Shown piece after piece: positions 4,665-33,682 of a DNA stretch of 64,000 bases. The notes beneath the pieces were generated by a model. That model did no database searches. It was not told the origin of the DNA and was given only the letters and a program-made list of their open reading frames with translations. Position numbers and translations under genes: made by a program. The stretch spans positions 27,322 through 91,321 of the forward strand of contig CACBON010000002.1 of NCBI GenBank assembly GCA_902540805.1, given 5' to 3'. Every line of letters starts with the position of its first letter. The stretch's first letter is position 1. Source of the DNA: an uncultured Alphaproteobacteria bacterium. GTDB taxonomy: Bacteria; Pseudomonadota; Alphaproteobacteria; Methylaequorales; Methylaequoraceae.

Positions 4665-5304
4665 CCTTGTTAGAATTAAAATATTTATTTTTTGTTAGGA
4701 TTTCATTGGCTTGAACCTGGATTTCAGTTATTTTTTCCTTTTCAATTAACTCTCCAACTCTATCCCTAATTTTCATAGCTTTATATATTCCTGAACTTAC
4801 AGATACAGAATACCATAAATATGATTTTTCAAAATCAATTTCTGGAGAAATTTTTTCATACCAATAACCCAATTGAAAGGCTGATATTGGATTGTTATCG
4901 TTAACATACCCATTTTCAAGAATTTTAGGGATAGTTTTGGAAATTTTTAAAAATTCATCTTCTTCAATTTTTTCTTCAATTGATTTTATTTTATTTAAAC
5001 ATTTTTTATTTCCGTTTAGTGAACAAAGCCAAGTATACTTAAGTGACTTGCTAAAGTTTTGGGTAGTTCCGATACCCTCAAAATACATATTTGATAAATT
5101 AAAAATTGCATCTTTATTTCCTTTTTCGGAAAGATTAAAAAAAACAATAAAAGATTTTTTAAACTCTCCATTTTCATAAAAATTCACCCCACTTTTGTAG
5201 TATTCCACATCATTCAAATATTTATTTTCAGGTGTTATTGTGTCTGCGAAAGACAATTCTTTAACGAGAAAAAAGTTTAAAAGAATTAAAAGAAATTGTT
5301 TCAC
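4648..5304 (-). CDS. Sel1/TPR-like repeat protein with signal peptide
   Basis: Sel1-like repeats (AIFNLSNMYFEGIGTTQNFSKSLKYTW; AFQLGYWYEKISPEIDFEKSYLWY). N-terminal signal peptide. GTG start overlaps the stop of the upstream ORF (GGTGA). Confidence 0.5.
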   Translation of the reverse strand: MKQFLLILLNFFLVKELSFADTITPENKYLNDVEYYKSGVNFYENGEFKKSFIVFFNLSEKGNKDAIFNLSNMYFEGIGTTQNFSKSLKYTWLCSLNGNKKCLNKIKSIEEKIEEDEFLKISKTIPKILENGYVNDNNPISAFQLGYWYEKISPEIDFEKSYLWYSVSVSSGIYKAMKIRDRVGELIEKEKITEIQVQANEILTKNKYFNSNKDEDDL

Positions 5305-5684
5305 CTTCCCGCCATCATTATTAACTGTAAATATAAAACTCTTAATCTAAACTTGGAATTTGGTCTTTGTTCATAAACAACAATTCTTGGTCTATCAGAA
5401 TTAGGTTTTTGAAATTCTATTGACATATCTTCTGGAAGAAATACACCATTAAATTCCAAAGTTTTTTGAGGATCTTGTTCAAACTCTTCTTTAAATTTAG
5501 AATCAATCCAAATCCTTGCCAGAACCCTTCCAAGTATATCTGGAAGAAACTTTCTTACCTCTGATCTATTTTTGAAATGATGAAGTTTATTAGTTATGTC
5601 AAGTGTTTTCGTTTTGTCTTGATTAACAGTTATAACTTCGTTTTGTTTAGTTTTGACTGGTAAATTTTGTTGTTTTTTTTTCAT
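5301..5684 (-). CDS. NHLP / nitrile-hydratase-alpha N-terminal-like domain protein
   Basis: ARIWIDSKFKEEFEQDPQKTLEFNGVFLPEDMSIEF...RIVVYEQRP parallels the conserved AKAWxDPxFKxxLLxDPxxALxExGxxxPEGxxxxVVENTP block of NHase alpha and NHLP leaders. It ends ...MMAGR with no core peptide. Confidence 0.45.
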   Translation of the reverse strand: MKKKQQNLPVKTKQNEVITVNQDKTKTLDITNKLHHFKNRSEVRKFLPDILGRVLARIWIDSKFKEEFEQDPQKTLEFNGVFLPEDMSIEFQKPNSDRPRIVVYEQRPNSKFRLRVLYLQLIMMAGR

Positions 5685-5770
5685 AGCTCAGTTTATTATA
5701 TATCTAAATCATAATTTAAAATAAATCATTAATTTATTAAAATTTTTGAAATATTGTCGTTACATTATTT

Positions 5771-6043
5771 ATGCATAGCACGAAGAACATTATTAAATTC
5801 CCAAATTTAATAAACCAAAAGAAAGAAAAAATGGTTAAAATTAGAGATGAAATTGAAAAAATTTTAACCAACTATGCCATTAATGAGAGAGATTTATGGG
5901 CTGTTTCACTTGCTGCTGGAAGATTTGCTTCAATCAATCTTGAAAAGTTGGATGGTGAAAAGCAGACAATTAATTTTTTTAAAAATTGTATTGAAACTCA
6001 AAAAAAGTTTGAACTAACCAGAAATCCTTCCAACATTCCCTGA
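5771..6043 (+). CDS. hypothetical small protein (possibly starting at the internal ATG at 5831)
   Basis: ORF only. The 3' end overlaps the convergent bactofilin gene by 30 nt. Confidence 0.2.
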   Translation: MHSTKNIIKFPNLINQKKEKMVKIRDEIEKILTNYAINERDLWAVSLAAGRFASINLEKLDGEKQTINFFKNCIETQKKFELTRNPSNIP

Positions 6044-6331
6044 AATTTGAGCTCCAGTATCAACGGAAAGCGAATTTGTTTTTAATTTACCGTCAATTAC
6101 ACCACTGTTAGAGACTTCTAGAAGGTCAGCTGTAATATCTCCATCAACCTTTCCCTCTACTTTTAAGTGTTCTGCATTTATGTTTCCATTGAAAAGTGCT
6201 GTGGATTCAATAATTACAGATCTAGCAACGATATTCCCTTTAAAATTTCCCGCTATAACAACTTGTCCTTCTTTCGACTCTAATTGTCCTTCCATGAGAA
6301 GACTTTTATTAATATAGGTTATATCACTCAT
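6014..6331 (-). CDS. bactofilin family protein (paralog 3)
   Basis: Beta-helical bactofilin (DUF583) periodicity: VIAGNFKGNIVARSVIIESTALFNGNINAEHLKVEGKVDGDITAD... Confidence 0.7.
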   Translation of the reverse strand: MSDITYINKSLLMEGQLESKEGQVVIAGNFKGNIVARSVIIESTALFNGNINAEHLKVEGKVDGDITADLLEVSNSGVIDGKLKTNSLSVDTGAQISGNVGRISG

Positions 6332-6333
6332 CT

Positions 6334-6687
6334 TTAATCCTCAGCGTGTTTATTATTTTTTAACTTATTTTCATCCCAGTTATGGATGATCTTACAGTTG
6401 AGTGCTGCACCTCTATCCATCTGAAGTGATTTATAATTAATTTCTCCAGTAATTACAGAAGAATCTGTAAGCCAAACAGAATCAGCTTTAATTTTACCTT
6501 GATAGTTTCCAGAAATTACAACTAACTCAGATATTATTGACCCTTCTAGTGAAGCATATCTTCCAAGTGTTACCTTATCAGATTTAATATCTGCTTCGAC
6601 TCTTCCATTAATTTCTATAGTTGATGCATTAGATATTTTGCCTTTAAATATCGCTCCTCTTCCTATGATTGATTGATTATCTGCCAT
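6334..6687 (-). CDS. bactofilin family protein (paralog 2)
   Basis: IGRGAIFKGKISNASTIEINGRVEADIKSDKVTLGRYASLEGSI... is a typical CcmA/BacA-like repeat pattern. Confidence 0.75.
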   Translation of the reverse strand: MADNQSIIGRGAIFKGKISNASTIEINGRVEADIKSDKVTLGRYASLEGSIISELVVISGNYQGKIKADSVWLTDSSVITGEINYKSLQMDRGAALNCKIIHNWDENKLKNNKHAED

Positions 6688-6689
6688 TA

Positions 6690-7112
6690 TTAAATACCTT
6701 TAGATTTTTTTGATGGTTTTTTTCTTTTTTCTTTCTCTAAACTTTTGTCTTCTATTCTTTTATCTAATCCACGGAAAAGCTGAATCTCTAAATTAGCACC
6801 TGGTCTTGCACTTAAACTATTGTAATACATATTACCTTTTATGTTAGCTGCAGATTCTATAGCTAATGATTCAGCAGTAACATCGCCCTCAAATTTACCT
6901 CCAATTATACATTCGAAAGCTTTTATATTACCTTTCTGATTTCCTTCAGCAGAAATATGAACATGTTCACATTCTATATTACCTTTAACAATTCCTTTAA
7001 GCACTAACTTTCCACTACATTTTATGTTACCGTTAATTTGCATTTCAGTACCAATTACACTAGAGGAAGTCGATGCTTTTTTTGGAGTTTTATCTGAGTT
7101 TCTAGAAAACAT
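6690..7112 (-). CDS. bactofilin family protein (paralog 1) with K-rich C-terminal tail
   Basis: MQINGNIKCSGKLVLKGIVKGNIECEHVHISAEGNQKGNIKAFECIIGGKFEGDVTAESLAIESAANIKGNMYY is the bactofilin repeat core. Confidence 0.75.
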   Translation of the reverse strand: MFSRNSDKTPKKASTSSSVIGTEMQINGNIKCSGKLVLKGIVKGNIECEHVHISAEGNQKGNIKAFECIIGGKFEGDVTAESLAIESAANIKGNMYYNSLSARPGANLEIQLFRGLDKRIEDKSLEKEKRKKPSKKSKGI

Positions 7113-7123
7113 ATTTCTATTTT

Positions 7124-7139
7124 TGCAATAATTTTGCCA
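7124..7139 (-). promoter_or_regulatory. sigma-54 (-24/-12) promoter candidate for the bactofilin operon
   Basis: Minus strand reads TGGCAA-AATTA-TTGCA. The -12 C is 12 nt upstream of ATG 7112, which implies a leaderless transcript. Confidence 0.55.
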
Positions 7140-7211
7140 ATTAATTTAATTTTTAGAACTTTTACCATTATCATAAAAAAAATTAAAAAAAAAGTTTTAT
7201 TATTTATATTT

Positions 7212-7227
7212 TGGCTTACTAAATGCA
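7212..7227 (+). promoter_or_regulatory. sigma-54 promoter candidate for the K-rich protein / M23 peptidase operon
   Basis: TGGCTT-ACTAA-ATGCA. GG and GC are correctly spaced. The -12 element is weaker (ATGCA). It lies about 42 nt upstream of ATG 7269. Confidence 0.4.
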
Positions 7228-7268
7228 TAAATTTACTTTTAATAAATTTTATTGTAAATTAATGAATT

Positions 7269-7811
7269 ATGAGTGAACCAGTAATTGATATTAGAGACAG
7301 GATAGAAAAGATGAGAAATCAGATGACCGTACCTGCCTCTAAAGTTTCTACTTCAGAAACAAAAGTTGAAAGTAAAAAAATTGAATCCGTACCAAGCGAC
7401 AAAGCCGCAAACATTAATGTAGAAAACTTAGAAAAAAAAATAAGTAAAAACAACTTTGAAATAGCCGATAAAGAAAATATTAAATTTAAGACAAACGAAA
7501 AATCAGCGGTCGATTCTGAAGCAAAAAAGCATAAACCAAAAAAAGCTGAAGAACCTGATTTTATTGAAAAAATAGAATTTGAAAAACAAAAGACTTTTGA
7601 AACTAAGCAAAATTATAAGACCTATGATAGCTATCAAAATGATAGAGTTGTTGATGATAAAAAACAATCAGTAAAGTTTGATGAAAAACAACCATTTCCT
7701 CAGTTTAGTTTAAACGTAAGTAATCCTATTTCTTGGAAACTAATGTTGCTAATTATGTTAATGCAACTGTTAACCAACATGATGTTGGTTGTTGTTTTAT
7801 ACCTAAAATAA
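7269..7811 (+). CDS. lysine-rich protein with C-terminal hydrophobic anchor
   Basis: Low-complexity K/E-rich sequence ending in the TM-like segment LMLLIMLMQLLTNMMLVVVLYL. It is 4 nt upstream of the M23 peptidase gene. Confidence 0.3.
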   Translation: MSEPVIDIRDRIEKMRNQMTVPASKVSTSETKVESKKIESVPSDKAANINVENLEKKISKNNFEIADKENIKFKTNEKSAVDSEAKKHKPKKAEEPDFIEKIEFEKQKTFETKQNYKTYDSYQNDRVVDDKKQSVKFDEKQPFPQFSLNVSNPISWKLMLLIMLMQLLTNMMLVVVLYLK

Positions 7812-7815
7812 CTAA

Positions 7816-9195
7816 ATGGAAAATTTATCTAAAAAATTTTCTATGAATGTGCTTAAATTTAACATTCTGAAAAATCTAAAATCAAGTACAAGATTTGGCG
7901 AAACTAGTATCTTTTCCAAAAACTTAACTGTATTTTCAAAAAACCTTAGACTCATTCTCAAAGAAAGAAGATTTCTTTATTTTACAAAAAAAGGCCCCAT
8001 AGAAGTTGTATTCAACATTAAACATTATCTGTCAGCTATTGCAATTTTTCTGGTTTTAATCTTCAAAGTATTTCAACTTTTATTCTTTGGTGTTTCGTCT
8101 TTTTTTTCTTATATGATTTACAAAAATACAGTTATAAATGAGCAGAGCTTTACAGAATCCGAAATTAAAACGTTAAAAAGTATTGCAAAAGGTAAAAATA
8201 TATCGGAGCAAGAAATTAATTCTGAAAAAGCAGAAATAGTAATAAAACAAAAAGATGAATTTAACAACACAAATAATTATCAAAATGAATTACAAGATCA
8301 ATTAAGAGAAAAATTATTAAATTTAAAAAGTATGATGCGAAATATAAAGCTTAGCCTCCCAAATGACTTGAATTATTCAGATGAAATTAAATTTGAGCAA
8401 TTTTCTAAAATTGCGAGTCCTGAAATGGTTGCAATAGAACACGCCTTCGAAAACAAGTTTGATTTAACAAAACCATCAAAAGACCAAAAGGAATCATTTT
8501 CATATAAGAAACTGCCTGTTATACCGTTTGTTGCACCAAGAACAAAAAAACTGAAAATAATTAATTTTACTAAGAAAATTGATATTGAAATTTTACAACT
8601 TTTAAGTGTTTTTGAACAATTAAAACTTCAACCAGATAAACTTGATATTCATAGGATAAACGCCTTGCTTTCTGAAAATATAAATGTAAGTGAAGATAAC
8701 GAGGATTTGTTGGATCATACTTCGCTAAGGTTTCAAATCTTGCAAGATCTTAAAGATGCAATTATTTATGTGCCTTTAAAACCACCTATGCAATATTACT
8801 ATGTCTCTAGTCCCTACGGTGTCAGAGTTCATCCTAAAAGCAAAAGAAAACAAATGCATCATGGAATTGATATGGCTGGTACTTGGCAAGAAGAGGTTAG
8901 GGCACCTGCTGATGGATATGTTTCTTTTTCAGGAAGAAATGGGTCTTTTGGTAAAACAATCAAAATAATACATAAACATGGTGTGTCAACATTGTATGGA
9001 CATCTTCATCGATTGAATGTGAAAAAAGGAAAGAATGTTACAGAGGGCGAAGTAATTGGAAAAATGGGATCAACAGGAAGAGCTGTAGGTGCGCATCTTC
9101 ATTATGAAATAAAAGTCAATGGTAAATCAGTAAATCCATATGATTTTATTTCAGTGGGACGTGATCTGCTAAGCAGTTCAATAATTAAAAAATAA
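7816..9195 (+). CDS. M23/LytM family metallo-endopeptidase (membrane anchored, coiled-coil middle)
   Basis: C-terminal HHGIDMAG...GRAVGAHLHYEI carries the HxxxD and HxH motifs of peptidase M23. One N-terminal TM helix. Confidence 0.75.
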   Translation: MENLSKKFSMNVLKFNILKNLKSSTRFGETSIFSKNLTVFSKNLRLILKERRFLYFTKKGPIEVVFNIKHYLSAIAIFLVLIFKVFQLLFFGVSSFFSYMIYKNTVINEQSFTESEIKTLKSIAKGKNISEQEINSEKAEIVIKQKDEFNNTNNYQNELQDQLREKLLNLKSMMRNIKLSLPNDLNYSDEIKFEQFSKIASPEMVAIEHAFENKFDLTKPSKDQKESFSYKKLPVIPFVAPRTKKLKIINFTKKIDIEILQLLSVFEQLKLQPDKLDIHRINALLSENINVSEDNEDLLDHTSLRFQILQDLKDAIIYVPLKPPMQYYYVSSPYGVRVHPKSKRKQMHHGIDMAGTWQEEVRAPADGYVSFSGRNGSFGKTIKIIHKHGVSTLYGHLHRLNVKKGKNVTEGEVIGKMGSTGRAVGAHLHYEIKVNGKSVNPYDFISVGRDLLSSSIIKK

Positions 9196-9204
9196 AGTAA
9201 AGTT

Positions 9205-9220
9205 TGGCACTTAAATTGCT
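9205..9220 (+). promoter_or_regulatory. sigma-54 promoter (consensus-perfect) for the SLT-domain gene
   Basis: TGGCAC-TTAAA-TTGCT. The -12 C is 12-13 nt before ATG 9232, which implies a leaderless transcript. Confidence 0.6.
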
Positions 9221-9231
9221 GAATAAAATGC

Positions 9232-9834
9232 ATGAGATTATTTTTGGCCGTTTTATTATGCTTTTTAATATTTACATTTCTTGAATCAAAAGAATTAGAT
9301 AATTGTAACTATTTAACTGAAAAGTACGGAAAAATTTATAATCTTCCCAATAAATTATTAACTTCTATCGCACTTGTAGAATCTGGGATCAAAAAGAACG
9401 AATTTAAATCATGGCCATGGACACTAAATGTTTCTGGAAAATCAATGTATTTTGATAATAAATTAGAAACCTTAGAATATTTAAAAAGTAATATAAGATT
9501 AAAAAAAAGTATCGACGTCGGTTGCATGCAAATTAATACAAGATACCACTTGAAAAATTTTAAAGATTTGTCTCATTTAGTCGAGCCCGAAGAAAATGTT
9601 AAGTATGCTGCAATTTATCTTCGTAAACTTTATAATAAACATAAATCGTGGAACGAAGCGGTTTCAAGATATCATTCATCAATTCCAAAACGAAAGAAAA
9701 ATTATCTTAAAAAAGTTCATACATATTGGAATGATTTAAGACAACAGAAAATAGTTATTAATAATTATACCAGCCATGATGAAGCAGAAAAAATAAAATT
9801 TTTTAGAGAAATACTAAATAAAGAAAATATTTAA
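9232..9834 (+). CDS. lytic transglycosylase (SLT domain) with signal peptide
   Basis: SIALVESGIKKNE (catalytic ES), VGCMQIN and AAIYLRKLY motifs of family-1 SLT domains. N-terminal signal peptide. Confidence 0.65.
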   Translation: MRLFLAVLLCFLIFTFLESKELDNCNYLTEKYGKIYNLPNKLLTSIALVESGIKKNEFKSWPWTLNVSGKSMYFDNKLETLEYLKSNIRLKKSIDVGCMQINTRYHLKNFKDLSHLVEPEENVKYAAIYLRKLYNKHKSWNEAVSRYHSSIPKRKKNYLKKVHTYWNDLRQQKIVINNYTSHDEAEKIKFFREILNKENI

Positions 9835-9839
9835 GATTT

Positions 9840-9855
9840 TGGCAAAGTATTTGCA
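9840..9855 (+). promoter_or_regulatory. sigma-54 promoter candidate for a small ORF
   Basis: TGGCAA-AGTAT-TTGCA. The -12 C is 12 nt upstream of ATG 9866. Confidence 0.55.
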
Positions 9856-9865
9856 GACATATTGT

Positions 9866-10051
9866 ATGAAAGGAAAAATAATGAATAAATACATAAGATC
9901 ACGAGAAATTAAAGATAATATTATTAATTCTAATCCAGTTATTAAAATTACTCATTTTGACAATAATAAATGTGTTAAAACTGATGTTTACCCAATTTCA
10001 CATTTCTTGGATAAAACTTCTAGAGAAATAAAAGCTCTAGTATATTCCTAA
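9866..10051 (+). CDS. small basic protein (61 aa, or 56 aa from ATG 9881 which has an AAAGGA RBS)
   Basis: ORF directly downstream of a sigma-54 motif. The track ORF starts at TTG 9839, inside the promoter motif. No recognisable domain. Confidence 0.3.
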   Translation: MKGKIMNKYIRSREIKDNIINSNPVIKITHFDNNKCVKTDVYPISHFLDKTSREIKALVYS

Positions 10052-10148
10052 GAAAAGGTATTGGCATTTTTCAAAACATATTTTTAAATATATACGAGAT
10101 TAAATCTTAAATAAAATTAGATAATTTATAAATTCATTAAAATCCAAA

Positions 10149-11609
10149 CTACATATTCATACTTTGAATTTTCATAATTTTTCTTCTAACTGAGGAGGCT
10201 GGTATATTGAGTAACTCCCTGTATTTTGCTACTGTTCTTCTAGCTAAATCAATTCCTTCATCTTGGAGTTTTTCTACTAACATTTCGTCACTCAATGGAC
10301 TGTGTACTGGTTCACTACTAATTAATTTTTTTAGAGATTCTCTTACTGATTCTGCTGAATGAGTTTCACCTTTCTTAGTACTACTTATAGAGGCACTAAA
10401 AAATAGTTTCATTTCAAAAACACCTCTTGGTGTTAGCATCAATTTATCTGATGTAACTCTACTGACTGTGCTTTCATGCATATTTATTTTTTTTGCTACA
10501 TCCTTAAGAACCATTGGTTTAAGATACTTTTTTCCCTTTTCAAAAAATTCCTTTTGTTGGTTAACAATTTCTGAGCTTATTTTCAGTGTTGTTACATTTC
10601 TTTGTTGAATTGCTTTGAGTAACCATCTTGCAGAATTTAAAGATTCATTAATAAACTTTTTATCTGATTCTCCACACTGAAGTCTCTCTATTTCTTTCAC
10701 GTAATCTTCGTTAATATTAATTTTTGGAAGTGTGCTATGATTTAATTCCACAGCCCAGTCAGAATTATTTTTTGTTACAATTACATCTGGATGAAAAATA
10801 TTGTCATTATCTATAGAATACTTACTCCCAGGTTTTGGGTTTAGAGCTCTTATAAGCCTTATTTCTTCTTTCAGTTTTTCCTCTGTTAATCCTGTAAGTT
10901 TTTGGAGACCTTTAATATTTCCACTTCCAAGTAGTTCAATATTATCAATAAGAATCTCTTTTTTTGAATCACAGTTGTTTTCGTTTATAAGTTGAATTTT
11001 TAGGCACTCTTTCAAATTTCTAGCAAATACACCATTAGGCTCAAAAGATTGCATTCTTTCTAGAACTTTTTCAATTTTATTTAATTTAAATCCACTAAAC
11101 TCTTCGATAGTTTCCAATTTTTCTGTAATCCAACCATTTTCATCAATGTAATCAATTAATATTTTTGCAATATTCTTATCTTCATCATCCTCAAATTCAA
11201 GATCTGCTTGATTATTCAAAATGGATTTTAAAGAAACTTTGTTGCTAAGTGTTTGTTCAATTACACTTCCAACGTCAACACTTTCCGTTGATGAATGCCT
11301 ACTGTTAAATTCAAAAGTCGCATCGCAATCCCACCTATTTTCAAAATCATTATTATGGGGTTCATCTGCAATAGATTCGCCATTTTTGAAAGATTCGTCT
11401 AATTCATCAGTTTTTTCTATGTCTTGATTTTCTTTATTATCTAGTTCTTCGCTCTCATTTTCCAAAAATGGATTCTCTTCCATCTCTTTATTCACTAAAT
11501 TTGTTAATTCTAAATTATTTAGCTGAAGCAATTTAATTGCTTGTTGTAACTGAGGAGTCATAACTAAAGATTGACTCTGTTTTAATTTAAGATTCTGTGA
11601 AATTTGCAT
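10149..11609 (-). CDS. rpoN: RNA polymerase sigma-54 factor
   Basis: Region I is Q/L-rich (MTPQLQQAIKLLQLNNLEL). C-terminal RpoN box ARRTVAKYRE. Confidence 0.85.
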   Translation of the reverse strand: MQISQNLKLKQSQSLVMTPQLQQAIKLLQLNNLELTNLVNKEMEENPFLENESEELDNKENQDIEKTDELDESFKNGESIADEPHNNDFENRWDCDATFEFNSRHSSTESVDVGSVIEQTLSNKVSLKSILNNQADLEFEDDEDKNIAKILIDYIDENGWITEKLETIEEFSGFKLNKIEKVLERMQSFEPNGVFARNLKECLKIQLINENNCDSKKEILIDNIELLGSGNIKGLQKLTGLTEEKLKEEIRLIRALNPKPGSKYSIDNDNIFHPDVIVTKNNSDWAVELNHSTLPKININEDYVKEIERLQCGESDKKFINESLNSARWLLKAIQQRNVTTLKISSEIVNQQKEFFEKGKKYLKPMVLKDVAKKINMHESTVSRVTSDKLMLTPRGVFEMKLFFSASISSTKKGETHSAESVRESLKKLISSEPVHSPLSDEMLVEKLQDEGIDLARRTVAKYRELLNIPASSVRRKIMKIQSMNM

Positions 11610-11668
11610 AATTCTTTTCCTTTCGTTATTATTTCACAATTTTTTTGTTAGAAATGCAAAACTTTAAT

Positions 11669-11708
11669 TTGACACTTCAACTAAGTCAGATACTTGACAC
11701 CCTTGACT
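11669..11708. repeat. three direct TTGAC(A/T)C repeats in the rpoN / 11751 intergenic region
   Basis: TTGACAC at 11669 and 11694, and TTGACT at 11703. They could be sigma-70 -35 boxes or a regulator site. Confidence 0.25.
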
Positions 11709-11750
11709 TATTAAAAAAACAATTAACAAATTTCTCTTTTATGTTGATAT

Positions 11751-12377
11751 ATGCTGGCTAATTTGAGTAAATATTCTATTATTACCCTAATGATAAAAGT
11801 TTTACCATTGTTGCTTATTCCAACGCTTTTTTTAGTATTTTTTTTGAATGTTGAAAATCTGACAGTTAAATTAGATAGTAAATTCAAATTTGAACAAATT
11901 TCTAAAACTAACGAAAATGAAGGTTTTCAGATTAAAAAAGATGAAGAAAAAACAATTTCAAATGAAAATCTAGATAAAAACAATGAAACAGAATTAGATA
12001 ATTCTTCAAAAGATTCTGGACCTATATTGTTAAAAGGGAACGAATCTAAATCAAAAACGGATTTAAATGATACCAAGAATAATCAGACAACTAATAAAAT
12101 TCCAGAAATTAAATCTAAACCCACGGTGATAGTTAGTGATAGTTTTTTAAAAATTCAATTTGGTGCTTTTTCGAAATTAAAGAATGCTGAAATACAAAAA
12201 CTAAAAATTCTTAAATTAATGTCCCAGAAGTTTCCAGATTTTGAGAAAAACTTTAGAATTTTGGAAGAAAATAATTTGTTCAAACTTATTTATAAAGCTG
12301 AGAATTCCTCAAGTGGTGAATTAATATGTAATTATTCAAAATCTATAAGAATTAACTGTTTAATTTTAAAAAGATGA
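11751..12377 (+). CDS. SPOR-like domain protein with N-terminal membrane anchor
   Basis: C-terminal LKIQFGAFSKLKNAEIQKLKI...LFKLIYKAE resembles the SPOR fold pattern (xVQxGAF...A...L). Confidence 0.35.
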   Translation: MLANLSKYSIITLMIKVLPLLLIPTLFLVFFLNVENLTVKLDSKFKFEQISKTNENEGFQIKKDEEKTISNENLDKNNETELDNSSKDSGPILLKGNESKSKTDLNDTKNNQTTNKIPEIKSKPTVIVSDSFLKIQFGAFSKLKNAEIQKLKILKLMSQKFPDFEKNFRILEENNLFKLIYKAENSSSGELICNYSKSIRINCLILKR

Positions 12378-12574
12378 AAAATTGTAGAATATGTTCTTTC
12401 ATAAGATATTTTTTAGGTTTTGTTCTGTTATTGATTATTATTTCGCTGACTTTTAAAGACAATCTAGGTTATCTTTCGTTTGTAACACCATGGAATGCAG
12501 CAATATTAATATTTGGTGTGGGTTGTTGTCTATTTTTATTTAAATTAATTGAGTATTTAAATCAGAAAGATTAA
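12374..12574 (+). CDS. small two-TM membrane protein
   Basis: ORF with two hydrophobic helices. Overlaps the upstream stop by 4 nt. Confidence 0.25.
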   Translation: MKNCRICSFIRYFLGFVLLLIIISLTFKDNLGYLSFVTPWNAAILIFGVGCCLFLFKLIEYLNQKD

Positions 12575-13047
12575 CGATCTTTTACAAATCTTACAAATAA
12601 TTCTTTCTCAGGTACAAACCTTCCATAAGAATGCCCCGTAAAGAAGTTTACTGACCAAAAAAACTTAGGTGACCACCAATTTCTTTGAGAAGTCCAGAAA
12701 GGTTCAGCCGGTGTATTAGGAAAAAAAGTTTTATTTATCTTTGCTCCCTCGCATTTTTTACAAATTAAACTTTCAAGCTCTTTTCTAGAGGGCAATCTCC
12801 ATTCACCTTCAATTTGTTCATTAAGTAAATTATTAGCCTCTTCTGCAGATTTTAAATCCAATTTAACTGCAGTTCCAAGACATTCTTGTTTGTTGTCGCT
12901 CCATTGTTGACCTGTTGTACATTTTAACCATTCAAGTTTATTTTTTAAATCTATAACGTAATATCCTTTGTCTATGAAGTTAGATGCAAAGACATTATTA
13001 CTAAAAAATAATAGGAAAAAACATATAAAAAGTTGCTTTTTAATCAT
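12571..13047 (-). CDS. DUF1566 (Lcl C-terminal domain) secreted protein
   Basis: Signal peptide. WLKCTTGQQWSD...WRLPSRKELESL matches the DUF1566 pattern. Confidence 0.5.
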   Translation of the reverse strand: MIKKQLFICFFLLFFSNNVFASNFIDKGYYVIDLKNKLEWLKCTTGQQWSDNKQECLGTAVKLDLKSAEEANNLLNEQIEGEWRLPSRKELESLICKKCEGAKINKTFFPNTPAEPFWTSQRNWWSPKFFWSVNFFTGHSYGRFVPEKELFVRFVKDR

Positions 13048-13096
13048 ATCTGTATATTACAATAAATATGTAAATTTATAAAAATATTTTCTATTT

Positions 13097-13112
13097 TGGT
13101 ATTAAAGTTGCA
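13097..13112 (+). promoter_or_regulatory. sigma-54 promoter candidate for motAB, inside a 28-bp palindrome
   Basis: TGGTAT-TAAAG-TTGCA. It sits in the inverted repeat tggtat...atacca (13097-13124), 51 nt upstream of ATG 13163. Confidence 0.45.
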
Positions 13113-13162
13113 GAATCCATACCAAAATATTAATTGTATATTAAATGAAAATGGAAAAATAA

Positions 13163-13936
13163 ATGGATTTAGCTACAATAATTGGTTTTCTTGGTACAAT
13201 TGGCATGATTGCTGGCGCAATGATTTCAGCTGGAGGCTTGGGGTCATACATTGATGTCCCTTCAATTTTAATAGTTTTTGGTGGTTCTTTTTTTGCTGTA
13301 ATGTATACGGCACCCTTACCAGTTTATCTTGGTTCTTTCGGAGCTTTTGGTAAAGCTTTTAAACCACCTGTAAAAAAAATGGACGAACTTATTGAAAGAA
13401 TAGTAGAGCTAGCAGGTATTGCAAGAAAAGATGGAATGATGGCATTAGAAGGGCAAGAAACCCCAGATCCATTTTTTGACAACGGTCTTCAAATGCTAGT
13501 AGACGGAGCAGATGAATCAAAACTTACCGTACAATTAAAAAAAGAACTAAAGGCAATGCAAGGTCGACATGAAAAAAATATTGGGTGTGCCCAATCTTGG
13601 GTAGATATAGCACCTGCAATGGGAATGATTGGAACTTTGGTTGGATTGGTTGCGATGCTTGGTAATATGGCAGATCCTAAAGCAATAGGTCCTGCAATGG
13701 CCGTTGCTCTTTTGACTACACTTTACGGGGCTATGATAGCAAATACTATTTTTATGCCGATAGTAATAAAATTAAAAGGCTACTCAGCCTACGAAACAAC
13801 CTACAGAGAAATGATCATTACAGGTTTACAATTTATTTCCAGAGGAGAGAGTCCAAGAAATATTCAGGATCAACTTGTTGCGAATCTTCCACCTAAAGAA
13901 AAGCAAAAACTCCTGGAAGCTGCAGCTGGAGGTTAA
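13163..13936 (+). CDS. motA: flagellar stator protein MotA/PomA
   Basis: MotA/TolQ/ExbB family with 4 TM helices (GTLVGLVAMLGNMADPKAIGPAMAVALLTTLYG). Immediately upstream of motB. Confidence 0.75.
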   Translation: MDLATIIGFLGTIGMIAGAMISAGGLGSYIDVPSILIVFGGSFFAVMYTAPLPVYLGSFGAFGKAFKPPVKKMDELIERIVELAGIARKDGMMALEGQETPDPFFDNGLQMLVDGADESKLTVQLKKELKAMQGRHEKNIGCAQSWVDIAPAMGMIGTLVGLVAMLGNMADPKAIGPAMAVALLTTLYGAMIANTIFMPIVIKLKGYSAYETTYREMIITGLQFISRGESPRNIQDQLVANLPPKEKQKLLEAAAGG

Positions 13937-13946
13937 TGTTTGAATC

Positions 13947-15131
13947 ATGGCTGAGGAAAAAACCGAAAATCAACAGACATCTAATGAAGAAGAGGAGCAT
14001 GAATGTCCTGAATGCCCTCCAAAAGGAGCACCTGCTTGGATGGCAACTTTTGCCGACATGGCAACACTGTTGATGGCTTTTTTTGTTTTAATCCTATCTT
14101 TCGCAGAATTTAACGTCCCAAAATTTAAACAAATAAGTGGAAGTATGAAGAATGCTTTTGGAATACAAAGAGTTATTCCAGTTGTTGAACCACCTAAAGG
14201 AACAACAATATTATCTTTAAACTTCAGTCCGAACCCGACTCCAGCAGTTCAAGAAAATTTAAAACAACAAACAACAGAGACTGATCAACCTAAAGTAGAA
14301 CTTCAAACTAAGAACGAAGATAATACTAAGGATGATGGTGAAACTGAGGACGCGAAAGAACTTGCCAAAAATATTCAGGAAGCTATTGCAAGAGGTGATA
14401 TAACCGTCGAAGCATTAGGGAGTAAAGTTGTTGTTAACTTTACACCAACAGAAGCTGACGAGAAAGAACTACCGCAACTACTTCAAGAGACTTTAAATGC
14501 TGTGGAATCTGTAAAGGCTGCATCAGGAAAATCAGATTCTGAAATTTTAATTGGTGGCTTAGAAAAACAACTCGCTGATCTTGCAACAGCATCTTCTCAA
14601 AAAGGTAAAAATGAGGCTGAAGGAGAAGATGGAGAAAGTGTAGGTCAATCTGAACAAAGCCAATCAGCTAAAGAGGAGGCTAAAAAAGCAGAGTTGGCTG
14701 AGGACAAATTAAAAATTGCACTTAAACAAGAAATTGGGGAAGGTCTTGTAAATGTTGATAGAGAGGACGACAAAGTGATAATAACTGTTGGGTCTGCTGG
14801 TGCGTTCAAGTCAGGATCTGCTGAACTTACCAACAAGGCAAGACAGATAATGTCTAAAATAGCAGAACAAAATAAAAAAGGTAGAAGTGAGATATTAGTT
14901 ATGGGTCATACGGACAATGTGCCACTTACATTTGGGTCAAATTATAGAGACAATTGGGATCTCGCAGCAGCAAGATCTGCCTCAGTGGTACAACAATTAT
15001 CAAGAAATGATACTCTCGACCCAAAAAGAATGAAGGCGATTAGTTACGGAGAGACAAGACCAGTAGAGTCAAATGATACCTCTCAGGGAAGAGCCAAAAA
15101 TAGAAGAATCGAAATTGAGATAAATTATTAA
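13947..15131 (+). CDS. motB: flagellar stator protein MotB with long acidic linker
   Basis: N-terminal TM helix with the conserved Asp region (ATFADMATLLMAFFVLIL). C-terminal OmpA-like peptidoglycan-binding domain (MGHTDNVPL...NRRIEIEI). Confidence 0.75.
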   Translation: MAEEKTENQQTSNEEEEHECPECPPKGAPAWMATFADMATLLMAFFVLILSFAEFNVPKFKQISGSMKNAFGIQRVIPVVEPPKGTTILSLNFSPNPTPAVQENLKQQTTETDQPKVELQTKNEDNTKDDGETEDAKELAKNIQEAIARGDITVEALGSKVVVNFTPTEADEKELPQLLQETLNAVESVKAASGKSDSEILIGGLEKQLADLATASSQKGKNEAEGEDGESVGQSEQSQSAKEEAKKAELAEDKLKIALKQEIGEGLVNVDREDDKVIITVGSAGAFKSGSAELTNKARQIMSKIAEQNKKGRSEILVMGHTDNVPLTFGSNYRDNWDLAAARSASVVQQLSRNDTLDPKRMKAISYGETRPVESNDTSQGRAKNRRIEIEINY

Positions 15132-16056: not shown

Positions 16057-16656
16057 TCACTCGTATTCAAGTTCTTCGTTTTTATATTTTTCAAAATATT
16101 CGTTACCAAGAATTTCTTTTATCTTCTCAATTGTAAGATCGTTAACTTTAGACGAGTATAACTCGTGCATTTCAGAACATTTTCTAGAAACTGCGTTTGC
16201 AACCCCTTGAGATATAAAATCATTTTCAAGTGCTGTTCTTGCTCTTGTGGTTGCCTCTGATTTAGCCTTTGTAAGCCTAGCTAAACCTGAATTTTTTTTT
16301 CTATTTAAATCGTCGACAACTTCCATCAGTTGTTTATAGCCTGGTTCTGGTAGGTCAATGTTAATGAATTGCCCATCAACTTCGTAATTAAACTCTACTT
16401 CGTCAATTTTTTCAGTTAAAAGGGGAATATGATCTGTATTAAATACTAAGATTTGCACTACATTTTCATTTTCTGTTTTTTTTATATCTCCTACATCAAC
16501 TAATCTTCTTGGCTTACCCTGAATGTTGATCCGGATACCTTTTAGTGTACTTAAGTTTGCATCTGCTGATTTTATTTCTTGAATTACTTCTGTATAATCT
16601 TCAATTGCTGCTTTCATTAAAGTTTCTGCTTGTATTGTATATTTATCTGCAACCAT
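16057..16656 (-). CDS. ribosome-recycling-factor-like protein (divergent paralog)
   Basis: By eye the hydrophobic/charge pattern tracks RRF: LKGIRINIQGKPRRLVDV vs LDGIVVEYYGTPTPLRQLA; ILVFNTDHIPLLTEKI vs INVFDRSMSPAVEKAI; INIDLPEP vs IRVPLPPLTEE. Roughly 20% identity at most. Confidence 0.35.
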   Translation of the reverse strand: MVADKYTIQAETLMKAAIEDYTEVIQEIKSADANLSTLKGIRINIQGKPRRLVDVGDIKKTENENVVQILVFNTDHIPLLTEKIDEVEFNYEVDGQFINIDLPEPGYKQLMEVVDDLNRKKNSGLARLTKAKSEATTRARTALENDFISQGVANAVSRKCSEMHELYSSKVNDLTIEKIKEILGNEYFEKYKNEELEYE

Positions 16657-16665
16657 AAGATGATT

Positions 16666-17466
16666 TTATACTATTACGGTTTGATTTTCATCAACAATGT
16701 TTTGTTTATTACTGTTATTTTTATTAACATTGTCTTCTTTTTTATCTTTTTCAACCTCTTCAACAAGTGGTTTTGGTAGTTTTGAAAACTTAAATTTTGA
16801 CTTTGGGTCTAACTTTCTAATGGTTTTTTGAGCCTCATCAATTGATTTAGACAAAATTTTTATACAAAAGACTTTTCCTTCCAGCATTGAAAAACTGTAA
16901 AGAAGATTTAATTGGGCTTTGTAACAGTAAATTGAAGTAAGTAACCATCCAAGAAAAAAAATATAAATATTGACTGATATTGATATTGCCATAATTGCTG
17001 TAAACAGAAGTAAAACCCACCATTTTTGCGAATAAGCTAACCAGAATGGAGGGAAAATACCTGCTGAAAGTGAGTTTGCATTTTCGATCACCTCATAGTT
17101 TCTGTAAACGTCTCTCATCCCAATAAATTCCTTTAGTTCATCAAGATCATTTATTTTATGCGTTAAGTAATCAGATTTTATTTTACTGGTTTCCTCAGCT
17201 GTAGTCGTAATAAATTTGCAACCTAAACTATTTTCTACTAATAAATTAAAAAATGTATCGTCTCTCAGAACTGTGAGCATAGATTTTTGACTATTTTTTT
17301 TTAACTCCTTTAAATCAGCGGTAAACTGTTTTTCACCAAAAGTATAGATTTGGTTATCTAGTGCAACGATTATATCATCAGGCTTCAAAAAGTTGTTTGC
17401 AGCGTGACTTCCACTATTTATTTTATTAATTTTTAAGAGAAAGTTTCCTTCTTGCTTTTCAGACAT
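16666..17466 (-). CDS. membrane protein with PDZ-like N-terminus
   Basis: GSHAANNFLKPDDIIVALDNQ resembles the PDZ ligand-binding loop. Two central TM helices. K/N-rich tail. Confidence 0.3.
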   Translation of the reverse strand: MSEKQEGNFLLKINKINSGSHAANNFLKPDDIIVALDNQIYTFGEKQFTADLKELKKNSQKSMLTVLRDDTFFNLLVENSLGCKFITTTAEETSKIKSDYLTHKINDLDELKEFIGMRDVYRNYEVIENANSLSAGIFPPFWLAYSQKWWVLLLFTAIMAISISVNIYIFFLGWLLTSIYCYKAQLNLLYSFSMLEGKVFCIKILSKSIDEAQKTIRKLDPKSKFKFSKLPKPLVEEVEKDKKEDNVNKNNSNKQNIVDENQTVIV

Positions 17467-21977: not shown

Positions 21978-22055
21978 AAACAACAGTAGTCACTTTAAAT
22001 AGCTGATTTAATTGATAAATTATTCATTAAAAAAAAGATGTCAATTTGCTGACAA

Positions 22056-31268: not shown

Positions 31269-32426
31269 TTAAGCTTGCATCAATTTTTTTTCTGACAAAT
31301 TTTCTTGAATGTTATTATAAAAATTACTTTCTTTCGAAACATCTATCATTATGTCTTTATCTTCAATTATATTTCTTTCAGAGAGAACTATAGCTCTTTG
31401 CAGAACATTTTCCAACTCTCTAACATTTCCGGGCCAACTATACTCTCTTAATATTTTTTGAGCATCTTTGTTGATGTAAGGTAGGGCGCTTTTTTCTGTG
31501 TGTCTATTCAATAAAGCTATACTAATTGGCAAAATATCATCAGGTCTTTCAGATAAATTATGTGTTTCTATTGGGAACACATTAAGTCTGTAATATAAAT
31601 CCTCTCTGAATTTTTTATCTTTTACTTCGTTTAACATATCTCTATTAGTTGTTGCAATTACTCGAACATTAACATCAATATCTCGTTGTCCGCCAATCGG
31701 TGTAACTTTTTTTTCTTGGAGAACTCTAAGAAGCTTAGCTTGAAGGGACAAAGGCATTTCAGATACTTCATCAAGAAGTAATGTTCCATTATCAGCAGCT
31801 CGAAAAATTCCTTTATTCGCAGAGGAAGCTCCTGTAAAAGCTCCTTTTTCATGTCCAAATAACATTGCTTCAAGCATATTTTCTGGTATCGCAGCACAAT
31901 TTATTGCAATAAAAGGTTTTTCATGTCTATCCGACTTTTTATGAATAAGATTGGAAATAACTTCTTTTCCAGTTCCAGTCGGTCCATGAATAAACACTGT
32001 AACATCTGTTTTTGAAACCTTTTCAACCATATTAATTAAAGAAAGTGTTTTCTTATCTGAGAAACTATACTTTTCCTTAGATATAATCTGAAAAATAATT
32101 TCTTTTATAACCTCATCCATAATCTGGAAAGAAATTTGAATATAAGCTCCGCCCATTTCTTTTTTTAAGTCATAACTACTATCATTTTCTGAATCCAAAA
32201 CTATTAATTTTGTAGAACCTATATTTCTAGCAATTTTAAGAATGTTTGATTGACCACCTTGTTGGTTTTCGAATTTTTTATCGATAATCAATGTGGATTG
32301 AGAACTTTTAATTTCACTGATCTCATCAGAATCAATTAATTTGATTTCCTTTCCTTTTTTACTAAAAAAATCATTTATATCATTGTGTACTTCAAAACAA
32401 TCTTTAATAATAAATATTTCCTTCAT
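31269..32426 (-). CDS. sigma-54-dependent activator lacking a DNA-binding domain (FlgR/FleT-like); start set to ATG 32426
   Basis: Degenerate receiver-like N-terminus. AAA+ core with GPTGTGKE and GAFTGA. About 40 aa follow GNVREL and contain no Fis-type HTH. The track ORF starts at TTG 32453. Confidence 0.8.
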   Translation of the reverse strand: MKEIFIIKDCFEVHNDINDFFSKKGKEIKLIDSDEISEIKSSQSTLIIDKKFENQQGGQSNILKIARNIGSTKLIVLDSENDSSYDLKKEMGGAYIQISFQIMDEVIKEIIFQIISKEKYSFSDKKTLSLINMVEKVSKTDVTVFIHGPTGTGKEVISNLIHKKSDRHEKPFIAINCAAIPENMLEAMLFGHEKGAFTGASSANKGIFRAADNGTLLLDEVSEMPLSLQAKLLRVLQEKKVTPIGGQRDIDVNVRVIATTNRDMLNEVKDKKFREDLYYRLNVFPIETHNLSERPDDILPISIALLNRHTEKSALPYINKDAQKILREYSWPGNVRELENVLQRAIVLSERNIIEDKDIMIDVSKESNFYNNIQENLSEKKLMQA

Positions 32427-32459
32427 ACTTAAATCCTTTATTTTCGTTTTCAATCTAAA

Positions 32460-32475
32460 AGCAAAAATATTGCCA
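32460..32475 (-). promoter_or_regulatory. sigma-54 promoter candidate driving the EBP-fliE-F-G-H-I-J operon
   Basis: Minus strand reads TGGCAA-TATTT-TTGCT. The -12 C is about 12 nt upstream of 32449. RBS AAAGGA precedes ATG 32426. Confidence 0.55.
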
Positions 32476-32617
32476 AATAAGAAAACGAATTTTTACAAAA
32501 TTAATTTTAAATAGTAATATCAACTACTTAGAAATTTTTTTTTTTTTTAATTTTTTTTAAAATTTGCTTATTGTCAGTTTTCTGACATTATTTTATTTAT
32601 AAATAAGTTAATTTATT

Positions 32618-33682
32618 ATGTCTGAGATCATCAAAGGAAAATGTGAGGCAACTTTACAATTAAAAAAACTTGTAGAGATGGTTGCAAAATCAAATTCAAC
32701 AGTTTTACTTAGAGGTGAGACTGGGTGTGGTAAAGATGTGGTTGCCAGAGCTATTCATGAATCATCAAAAAGAAACGGTGAATTAATTAATGTTAATTGT
32801 GCAGCAATACCGTCTGAGCTTTTAGAATCTGAATTATTTGGTCACGAAAAAGGAGCATTTACTGGTGCAGATTCAAAAAGAGAAGGAAGATTCGAGGCTT
32901 CCAATAATGGCACCTTGTTTCTAGATGAAATAGGTGACATGCCTATGGCACTTCAGGCTAAATTACTCAGAGCGATTGAAACTAGAAAAATTCAACGAGT
33001 TGGAGGAAGAAAAGAGATTGATCTTAATTTAAGGCTTATTTGTGCTACTCACCAAGACATTGAAAAAAAAATTGATGAGGGTAATTTTAGGGCTGATCTA
33101 TTTTTTCGGATCAACGTATTTCCAATTGAAATTCCATCACTCGCAGAGAGAAAGGAGGATATTCCAATTCTTGTTAATCATATCTTAGAGGATTTAAAAT
33201 ACAGTGGATCTATTATTCCTCAAATTGATAATTCGGGAATAAAAGCGCTTCAAGAATATTTATGGCCAGGTAATGTAAGAGAATTAAAAAATGTTATTGA
33301 GAGGGCAGCAATAATCTTCCCAGAAAAAAGTATTAATGGCAAAAACATTAAAGAAAATTTGTTAAAAGTTAATTTACCTGACAACTCTCAAGAAAAAGAG
33401 GAGTTATGGGAAATGACTTCTGATCTTTCTCCAATAAAAATCGAAACGAGTTCTGATTCTCATTCAATGCCACACCCAAATCATTATAAAAAATGGTTTG
33501 ATTTCTTAGACAAGATAGATCTTCGTAGACATTTAAGTGATGTTGAATTTAACTTAATAGAAGGAGCACTAAAGAAAAGTAACGGATCTGTGACCGAGGC
33601 TTCGAAATGTTTAAAAATAAACAGAACGACTTTAATTGAAAAAATGAAAAAATACTCTATTCCTAAGCTCGGAAATGACTAA
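32618..33682 (+). CDS. sigma-54-dependent activator with C-terminal Fis-type HTH and no regulatory N-domain
   Basis: Starts directly with the AAA+ domain ([20 protein letters not shown]). C-terminal HTH ([29 protein letters not shown]). Confidence 0.8.

Follow-up and report, generated by a model that had tools for sequence, protein, structure and literature searches.

How do alphaproteobacteria whose FlgJ carries no hydrolase domain confine the cutting of the cell wall to the flagellar site (PMC7277832)? Here we address this question at a locus in a 64,000-nucleotide stretch of DNA from an uncultured marine alphaproteobacterium of the Methylaequoraceae (contig CACBON010000002.1, positions 27,322 to 91,321 of the forward strand), which we refer to as the window and within which all coordinates are given. 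In this window three tandem bactofilin genes lie divergent from the genes for a lysine-rich membrane-anchored protein, here called the adaptor, and an M23 endopeptidase, with a gene for an SLT-family lytic transglycosylase and rpoN, the gene for sigma-54, beyond them. Our preferred reading, for which we would put the chances a little short of even, is that the locus encodes a bactofilin-guided peptidoglycan-remodelling module which belongs to the motility sigma-54 regulon and helps to assemble the flagellum and to anchor its motor at the flagellated site. The arrangement suggests that the cell turns on the flagellum and the local cutting of its wall at the same time.

Sigma-54 promoters at the locus

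Sigma-54 sites were scored with a strict pattern, TGGC-N7-TTGCW, and with the full consensus TGGCAC-N5-TTGCW. The window contains 7 matches to the strict pattern where 0.64 are expected, and none of 100 shuffled sequences had as many. Five of the seven sites are intergenic and correctly oriented, all of them within the flagellar region at 6-33 kb. The two others, one inside rpoN and one inside fabF, look like chance matches; the motif within the rpoN coding sequence (TGGCGAATCTATTGCA, 11367-11382, minus strand) lies on the coding strand and was treated accordingly.

A preliminary description of this DNA had placed a sigma-54 motif on each strand of the 156-bp intergenic region at 7113-7268, and every coordinate it gave proved correct. 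The bacABC promoter (TGGCAAAATTATTGCA, 7124-7139, minus strand) has its GC 12 nt before the bacA ATG, and the promoter of the adaptor and M23 genes (TGGCTTACTAAATGCA, 7212-7227, plus strand) lies 42 nt from the adaptor ATG and departs from the consensus at -12, where it reads ATGCA and not TTGCA. The perfect-consensus site that the same description had assigned to the SLT gene is indeed a full match to TGGCAC-N5-TTGCW (TGGCACTTAAATTGCT, 9205-9220, plus strand). A further site, absent from that list, precedes a small open reading frame (ORF) downstream of the SLT gene (TGGCAAAGTATTTGCA, 9840-9855, plus strand) and is followed by an AAGGAG Shine-Dalgarno sequence. Because only 11-13 nt separate the GC from the ATG, the SLT and bacA mRNAs are predicted to be leaderless, a prediction that assumes the canonical spacing between the -12 GC and the transcription start. 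To our knowledge, no sigma-54 promoter yielding a leaderless mRNA has been described.

Conservation in close and distant relatives

A scan of species-representative genomes provided a close set of 30 related loci (L003-L032), whose M23 proteins are 51-94% identical. In all loci that are long enough the order is orf127, orf90 and bacC-bacB-bacA, then the divergent adaptor, M23, SLT and small-ORF genes, and then rpoN. The intergenic sequence has diverged across these loci while the -24 and -12 elements are retained. The adaptor/M23 promoter is present in 27/27 loci, including the subclade at 51% identity, the SLT promoter in 30/30, and the small-ORF promoter in 29/30, the exception having Ns in the motif. 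The distance from GC to ATG at the SLT promoter is 11-13 nt in 27 of the 30 loci, or in 28 when the true L003 site is used. The bacA site lies 11-12 nt from the ATG in 10 loci, which form the window's own subclade, and 26-36 nt from it in 3. The preliminary claim of a sigma-54-driven module stands for the adaptor/M23 and SLT sites, which are universal in this close set, and has to be narrowed for the bactofilins, whose promoter was found in only 13 of 27 loci.

An exhaustive HMMER search, followed by a profile search and context look-ups, added six distant loci (L115-L120) with G+C contents of 27-44%. In the four that were compared, RpoN is 40-44% and MotA 67-75% identical to the window proteins, and in the three loci where the M23 protein aligned over its full length it is 31-37% identical. 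All six (6/6) have three bactofilins facing a 124-145-aa adaptor and an M23 gene, and in all six the adaptor belongs to the same family, with the N-terminal motif (V/I)IDIR(E/D)RIEK and a transmembrane (TM) tail. Where the contig is long enough, as in five of them, these genes are followed by rpoN, a small ORF, an Lcl_C gene and motAB, with one or two small ORFs before rpoN except in L119, where none is called. In L116, L117 and L120 the SLT orthologue stands at the end of the bactofilin operon, and housekeeping genes flank the island at either end.

Sigma-54 sites recur in these distant loci upstream of bacA and/or the adaptor gene, the SLT gene, the small ORF and motA. Back-to-back promoters for the adaptor and bacA genes have a palindromic -24 element in common in L118 (TGGCATGCCA), whereas in L115 and L119 the two promoters are face-to-face and overlap at the -12 TGCA; L116, L117 and L120 have the bacA site only, 139-140 nt upstream. 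This recurrence with changed geometry argues that the sigma-54 control of the module is old and has been maintained, while individual promoters were gained, lost and moved. The SLT gene of L117 and L120, although located in the bactofilin operon, has a sigma-54 site 12 nt from its ATG, in a lineage where RpoN is only about 40% identical. That the SLT orthologue relocates and yet keeps its own sigma-54 site points to a functional tie between SLT and the bactofilins.

These comparisons bear on the alternative that the GG-N10-GC matches are chance or non-functional occurrences in AT-rich DNA and that the operons are transcribed by sigma-70. The G+C content is indeed about 29% in the genome as in the window, the plus-strand site in 7113-7268 is off consensus at -12, and sigma-70-like hexamers are present in the spacer. 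However, the 33 sigma-70-like matches compare with 34.4 in shuffled sequence, and a scan for sigma-70 promoters and terminators gave nothing above shuffled sequence, while the strict sigma-54 pattern exceeds its expectation as given above. Furthermore, the sigma-54 sites are kept in 27-30 loci while their flanks diverge, their spacing to the start codon is fixed, and they recur at 40-44% RpoN identity, which together make the alternative highly improbable. A search of 5000-13500 against Rfam gave no match.

Proteins encoded by the module

As the preliminary description had proposed, three tandem bactofilin genes are present, and all three products match PF04519: bacA (140 aa, 6690-7112, E 4e-21), bacB (117 aa, 6334-6687, E 9e-21) and bacC (105 aa, 6014-6331, E 3e-22), all on the minus strand. 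BacB is the best conserved of the three, at 72-99% identity across the close clade, and bacC is retained in all related loci of that clade. The N-terminus of BacA (MFSRNSDKTPKK, beginning MFSRNSDK) resembles a bactofilin membrane-targeting sequence, for which the consensus of the MFSK type is MFSKKKK (PMC12448750). No MFSK-like N-terminal tail is found in the window translations of BacB and BacC.

The first gene on the other side (7269-7811, plus strand) encodes the adaptor, a protein of 180 aa with 16% lysine whose sole hydrophobic segment by hydropathy, residues 156-180, is at the extreme C-terminus. In the alignment, an invariant N-terminus of 20 residues and an invariant C-terminal TM helix enclose a variable charged linker. 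Pfam and NCBIfam searches returned no family match for the adaptor, and none of its 474 homologues has a name. The codons at the 3' end of the adaptor gene that specify the invariant TM helix contain a terminator-like hairpin with a T-run (7771-7791), 25 nt before the M23 start; with one such hairpin found in the region against 2.1 expected, it may be due to chance.

The adjoining gene (7816-9195, plus strand) encodes an M23 endopeptidase of 459 aa, with the Peptidase_M23 domain (PF01551, E 1.4e-30) at residues 346-441. The pairing of a K-rich anchored protein with an M23 peptidase, also part of the preliminary description, is thus borne out by the TM tail in the hydropathy profile and by the Pfam match. 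From the N-terminus, the protein consists of a cytoplasmic tail with a putative hairpin motif (ERRFLYFTKKGPIE), a TM helix, a helical periplasmic region and the C-terminal M23 domain; its hydrophobic stretch by hydropathy is residues 62-98. The zinc-binding and catalytic motifs HxxxD and HxH are intact, and H348, D352, H427 and H429 are invariant across the distant relatives, as are E50, R52, L54, G60, P61 and E63 in the N-terminal part. The motif ERRFLxFTxxGPxE is likewise invariant in the distant M23 relatives, which have it in common together with the TM helix and the catalytic His/Asp residues. An AlphaFold2 model was built from a 10-sequence alignment, of which only the secondary structure was used and flagged as weak; it has strands at 51-57 and 60-66 and a helix at 68-109, at low confidence (predicted local distance difference test, pLDDT, 46). 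Among solved structures, the M23 domain best matches 3slu, the chain of which is named "M23 peptidase domain protein" (E 2e-30). By NCBIfam name the protein comes closest to Campylobacter Pgp6 and Pgp3, with scores of 79-83 bits where the cut-offs are 300-600. In marine metagenome assemblies, homologues of the M23 gene and of the adaptor gene each number from hundreds to more than 1000. Judged by its sequence, the M23 protein is an LmdC-like bitopic DD-endopeptidase, with activity predicted.

The closest known system is BacA-LmdC, the bactofilin/M23 module of Hyphomonas neptunium and Rhodospirillum rubrum, in which BacA binds the cytoplasmic hairpin of LmdC (Pohl et al. 2024, PMC10945521); the predicted architecture and the catalytic residues of the window protein fit this system. 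As in BacA-LmdC, bactofilin genes share a locus with the gene for a bitopic M23 peptidase, in which a short cytoplasmic tail and a TM helix are followed by a helical periplasmic region and, at the C-terminus, by an M23 domain whose zinc ligands are intact. A conserved motif ahead of the TM helix is weakly predicted to form a hairpin like that of LmdC, and by analogy recruitment of the hydrolase by the polymer would be expected. Unlike the single lmdC-bacA operon, the locus described here is divergent and has three bactofilin paralogues, and a conserved gene for a tail-anchored adaptor separates them from the M23 gene. The published screen for bactofilin/M23 pairs required the two genes to be immediate neighbours (PMC10945521). 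The associated SLT gene, the sigma-54 promoters and the fixed linkage to rpoN and motAB are further differences, none of these having been reported for BacA-LmdC.

The csd1-csd2-ccmA locus of Helicobacter pylori is a co-directional operon with a pair of active and inactive M23 proteins and one bactofilin, and we know of no sigma-54 control of it. Like this locus, the module encodes a bactofilin and an M23 protein together, with peptidoglycan cross-links as their predicted target. Unlike it, the module has one M23 protein with no inactive paralogue, three bactofilins and divergent operons, and the M23 protein scores far below the cut-offs of the models for Pgp3 and Pgp6, the related peptidases of Campylobacter. 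The parallel with csd1/csd2-ccmA drawn in the preliminary description is hence apt in the combination of bactofilin with M23 peptidase, and it gives way to BacA-LmdC (PMC10945521) as the closest system.

The transglycosylase gene (9232-9834, plus strand) encodes a predicted secreted, SltF-like protein of 200 aa (PF01464, E 4e-10) with a hydrophobic, signal-like N-terminus (residues 1-22). Its SLT motifs, E50-S51 (VESG) and GCMQ, can be read directly from the sequence, and it has weak NCBIfam matches to the machine-associated transglycosylases IagB and VirB1. The gene stands in a sigma-54 context, with its own conserved site and with rpoN and motility genes flanking it. By analogy it is best compared with SltF, the Sec-exported flagellar transglycosylase of the Fla1 system of Rhodobacter (Cereibacter) sphaeroides, where sltF lies in the flgG operon (PMC7277832). 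Both combine a Sec-type signal with an SLT domain and are encoded among alphaproteobacterial sigma-54 motility genes. Unlike sltF, the SLT gene described here is associated with genes for bactofilins and an M23 peptidase, and it has a private sigma-54 promoter whose transcript is predicted to be leaderless.

Linkage to motility genes and candidate activators

The rpoN gene of the window (10149-11609, minus strand) is complete, with all three Pfam sigma-54 domains. It adjoins the module in every close and distant locus whose contig reaches that far, and motAB comes after rpoN in every lineage whose contig does so. In the window itself, 6-34 kb is a motility region with motAB, flhB, fliR, fliP, fliO, fliN, fliM, fliL, fliK, fliI, fliH, fliG, fliF and fliE; the position of fliJ is held by a 137-aa ORF without assignment. 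Beyond it, to the annotated extent at about 55 kb, the genes are housekeeping, and FlgJ was not found over this annotated extent. That the module is part of the flagellar sigma-54 regulon, as the preliminary description had it, is thus backed in two ways, the sigma-54 wiring by comparison and the flagellar part by gene context.

Between rpoN and motA, a gene for a secreted Lcl_C/DUF1566 protein (12571-13047, minus strand, PF07603, E 1e-21) is divergent from motA-motB, which lie on the plus strand; together the three genes, assigned by Pfam, span 12571-15131. The Lcl_C gene occupies the same place in the five distant lineages that reach that far, and its product may be a motor-associated periplasmic component. 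It has a sigma-54 site of its own in most loci. In the window the two promoters are face-to-face, with sites at 13097-13112 (plus) and 13109-13124 (minus) that have the -12 TGCA in common and together form a near-palindrome (TTTTGGTATTAAAGTTGCAGAATCCATACCAAAA, 13097-13124). Because both sites converge on one TGCA, each predicted transcription start falls on the -24 element of the other. The motA site is invariant in 24/24 relatives and its minus-strand partner is present in 17/24; the same pair is found in L115, L117, L119 and L120. Taken from sequence, the sigma-54 promoter designs at this locus and in its relatives, with predicted leaderless mRNAs and overlapping face-to-face or back-to-back pairs, are unusual.

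Well-placed sigma-54 sites were also found upstream of motA, the fliO region, fliK and the gene for a FleT-like activator. Only two sigma-54 activators are encoded in the window, and they are divergent from each other. The FleT-like protein (394 aa, 31269-32453, minus strand) has no detected helix-turn-helix (HTH), and its gene heads fliE-F-G-H-I behind a sigma-54 site at 32460-32475; the FleQ-like protein (354 aa, 32618-33682, plus strand) has an AAA+ domain and an HTH_8 domain. A similar layout is known from the Fla1 system of R. sphaeroides, where rpoN2 lies in the cluster, FleQ activates fleT-fliEFGHIJ, and FleQ and FleT together activate class III genes including motAB (PMC7277832). As in Fla1, rpoN lies in the motility region, an activator without HTH is first in the fliE operon behind a sigma-54 site, a separate FleQ-type activator carries the HTH, and motAB has a sigma-54 promoter. 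Unlike the locus described here, the Fla1 regulon has no bactofilin or M23 genes described in it.

The 72 bp between the two -24 elements of the divergent module promoters contain a shared control region (7164-7193, plus strand) in which a conserved box is followed by two phased A-tracts. The box, ATGMTTATCAY in the relatives and ACCATTATCAT here, abuts A8-TT-A9, and both the box and the A-tracts are kept in nearly all related loci. The box ATGATNATCAT occurs once in the window, at this intergenic region only. A reading of ATGATNATCAT as a Fur box, by resemblance to the eye, was unsupported and has been dropped. The exact sequence A8TTA8 is found twice in the window and in the same orientation, at 7175-7193, upstream of the adaptor/M23 promoter, and at 32541-32558, upstream of the fleT promoter, and the motA promoters of the relatives have tracts of A9-A17 in the same place just upstream of -24. 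This A-tract element may be an intrinsic bend or an UP-like element. Between the fleQ-like and fleT-like genes lies a palindrome, TGTCAG-N4-CTGACA (32572-32587), of which the relatives (L035-L047) keep TGTCA-N6-TGACA. A second exact copy is located at 22039-22054, upstream of the fliO-region promoter, and a copy with one mismatch at 11684-11699, between rpoN and orf208. With 4 copies in the window against 2.3 expected the palindrome is not enriched, and we regard it as a candidate FleQ site.

It is on these activators and control sequences that a second alternative turns, in which the module depends on sigma-54 and is driven by a non-flagellar activator encoded elsewhere in the genome, responding to envelope stress, nitrogen or a cell-cycle signal, so that its proximity to motility genes would be a matter of gene order only. 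We consider this unlikely. A dedicated regulator could bind the box ATGMTTATCAY, which is unique to this intergenic region, the module has no enhancer motif in common with the fleT or fliO regions, and our survey of activators covered 64 kb of the genome. Against this, both activators of the window are flagellar in type, rpoN sits between the module and motAB in every lineage in which both are seen, and the module has the A-tract layout upstream of -24 in common with the motA and fleT promoters.

A possible role at the flagellar site

In the mechanism that we tentatively favor, the sigma-54 holoenzyme (E-sigma54), activated by the FleQ-like and FleT-like ATPases, whose genes lie at a distance of 22 kb, would fire the module promoters together with those of motAB and the fli operons. 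BacA, with BacB and BacC, would polymerise on the inner face of the membrane, and the polymer would capture the cytoplasmic hairpin of the M23 protein, by analogy with BacA and LmdC. The adaptor may bridge or regulate the contact between bactofilin and M23 protein through its invariant N-terminal peptide and its TM helix. The endopeptidase would then cut peptide cross-links at one place only, where the transglycosylase would cut the glycan strands, and the FleQ and FleT homologues would time this cutting with the assembly of the flagellum. Such a local opening or softening of the wall would serve flagellum assembly and motor anchoring.

We favor a flagellar role because the transglycosylase travels with the bactofilins, because the island remains joined to rpoN and motAB in lineages that have no further flagellar gene in the vicinity, and because the bactofilins BacE and BacF of Bacillus subtilis are needed for assembly of the flagellar hook and filament (PMC4627819). 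The motility defect of B. subtilis bactofilin mutants is strain-dependent (PMC9103452). By analogy, the bactofilins described here would resemble BacE and BacF in being connected to flagellum assembly; unlike them, they are not found in a Gram-positive host, and neither an M23 or SLT partner nor sigma-54 control has been reported for BacE and BacF. A more specific form of this reading is a flagellum-dedicated wall-opening device, in which the bactofilins would mark the site, the adaptor would hold the endopeptidase with the SltF-like enzyme alongside, the rod would pass and the stator ring would anchor, and the whole would form a class of the sigma-54 flagellar hierarchy. We regard this form as plausible and hold it with somewhat more reserve.

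Several observations weigh against the flagellar reading. The bacA promoter is missing in 14 of 27 close relatives, those with short spacers. In L116, L117 and L120, which represent one lineage, the plus-strand site of the adaptor and M23 genes was not found even when the probable start codon was corrected, and L115 and L119, which have the same gene arrangement, have no SLT gene in the island. The TGTCA-N6-TGACA palindrome does not occur in 7113-7268, and no enhancer site common to the module and the fli promoters was found. Given its pLDDT, the model leaves the M23 hairpin resting on sequence conservation and a weak secondary-structure call. Since the activator survey was that of a 64-kb window, NtrC-type or other activators elsewhere are possible. 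Lastly, where modules of the BacA-LmdC and CcmA-Csd kinds have been characterised, they act in cell shape and not in the assembly of flagella.

This last point leads to the third and main alternative, in which the module gives the cell a curved or helical shape, like BacA-LmdC in Rhodospirillum rubrum and CcmA with Csd1/2 in H. pylori, and sigma-54 merely co-expresses shape with swimming, with no direct role in building the flagellum. A curvature role is nearly as likely as a flagellar one. In its favor, the M23 protein shares the architecture of LmdC, with a conserved motif for a putative hairpin before the TM helix; bactofilin/M23 gene pairs occur in 226 species and control shape where tested (PMC10945521); and the nearest NCBIfam names, though far below their cut-offs, belong to Campylobacter shape peptidases. 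On the other hand, the module is linked to rpoN and, on contigs of sufficient length, to the Lcl_C gene and motAB, even if the neighbourhood has no other flagellar genes, and a secreted transglycosylase with its own sigma-54 promoter travels along, in one lineage inside the bactofilin operon; a shape role would still be compatible with both of these points. The characterised shape modules are without such a transglycosylase.

Within the library searched, full-text searches returned no paper tying bactofilins, LmdC or M23 peptidases to sigma-54, RpoN or FleQ, which agrees with the novelty claimed in the preliminary description. A broad survey that names sigma-54 a controller of the bacterial exterior makes no mention of M23 peptidases or transglycosylases.

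Neighbouring genes

Convergent with bacC lies orf90 (5771-6043, plus strand), which encodes a 90-aa protein without a Pfam family match and is a conserved member of the island, being syntenic in 27/27 full clade loci by tblastn. By eye, the family has the motif IRDEIE...AVSLAAGRF. Its relatives stand beside bacC in L115 and L119 and just 3' of the M23 gene in L116 (11653-11952) and L117 (11799-12101), so that the position shifts and is always within the island. We consider orf90 to be probably a further component of the bactofilin/M23 module. Next to it, orf127 (127 aa, 5301-5684, minus strand) shows 70-98% identity within the clade and keeps synteny with the module. It has a sub-threshold match to the NHLP leader-peptide family of precursors of ribosomally synthesized and post-translationally modified peptides (RiPPs; TIGR03793, E 6e-7, 29 bits against a cut-off of 51). 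No RiPP maturation genes were noticed near orf127.

The small ORF that follows the SLT gene (56 aa, 9881-10051, plus strand) has no family match in Pfam or NCBIfam. A small ORF occupies the same slot after the M23 gene in most distant lineages, and by eye it and these counterparts have a motif ...V.FD...F(L/I) in common. Between rpoN and the Lcl_C gene, a SPOR domain guessed by eye in orf208 (11751-12377) was unsupported by Pfam even at E up to 1. Within the motility region, a 199-aa ORF (16057-16656, minus strand) has a modest match to ribosome recycling factor (RRF; PF01765, E 3e-12), and in L119 a 269-aa gene with a weak RRF match (16272-17081) comes directly after motB. The 199-aa ORF looks like an RRF-like paralogue linked to motility genes.

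Significance

The locus offers compact natural examples of predicted leaderless sigma-54 mRNAs and of overlapping bidirectional sigma-54 promoters. Bactofilin/M23 modules have so far been known only as cell-shape devices, and the conserved island described here provides a testable link between the cytoskeletal positioning of wall hydrolases and motility.

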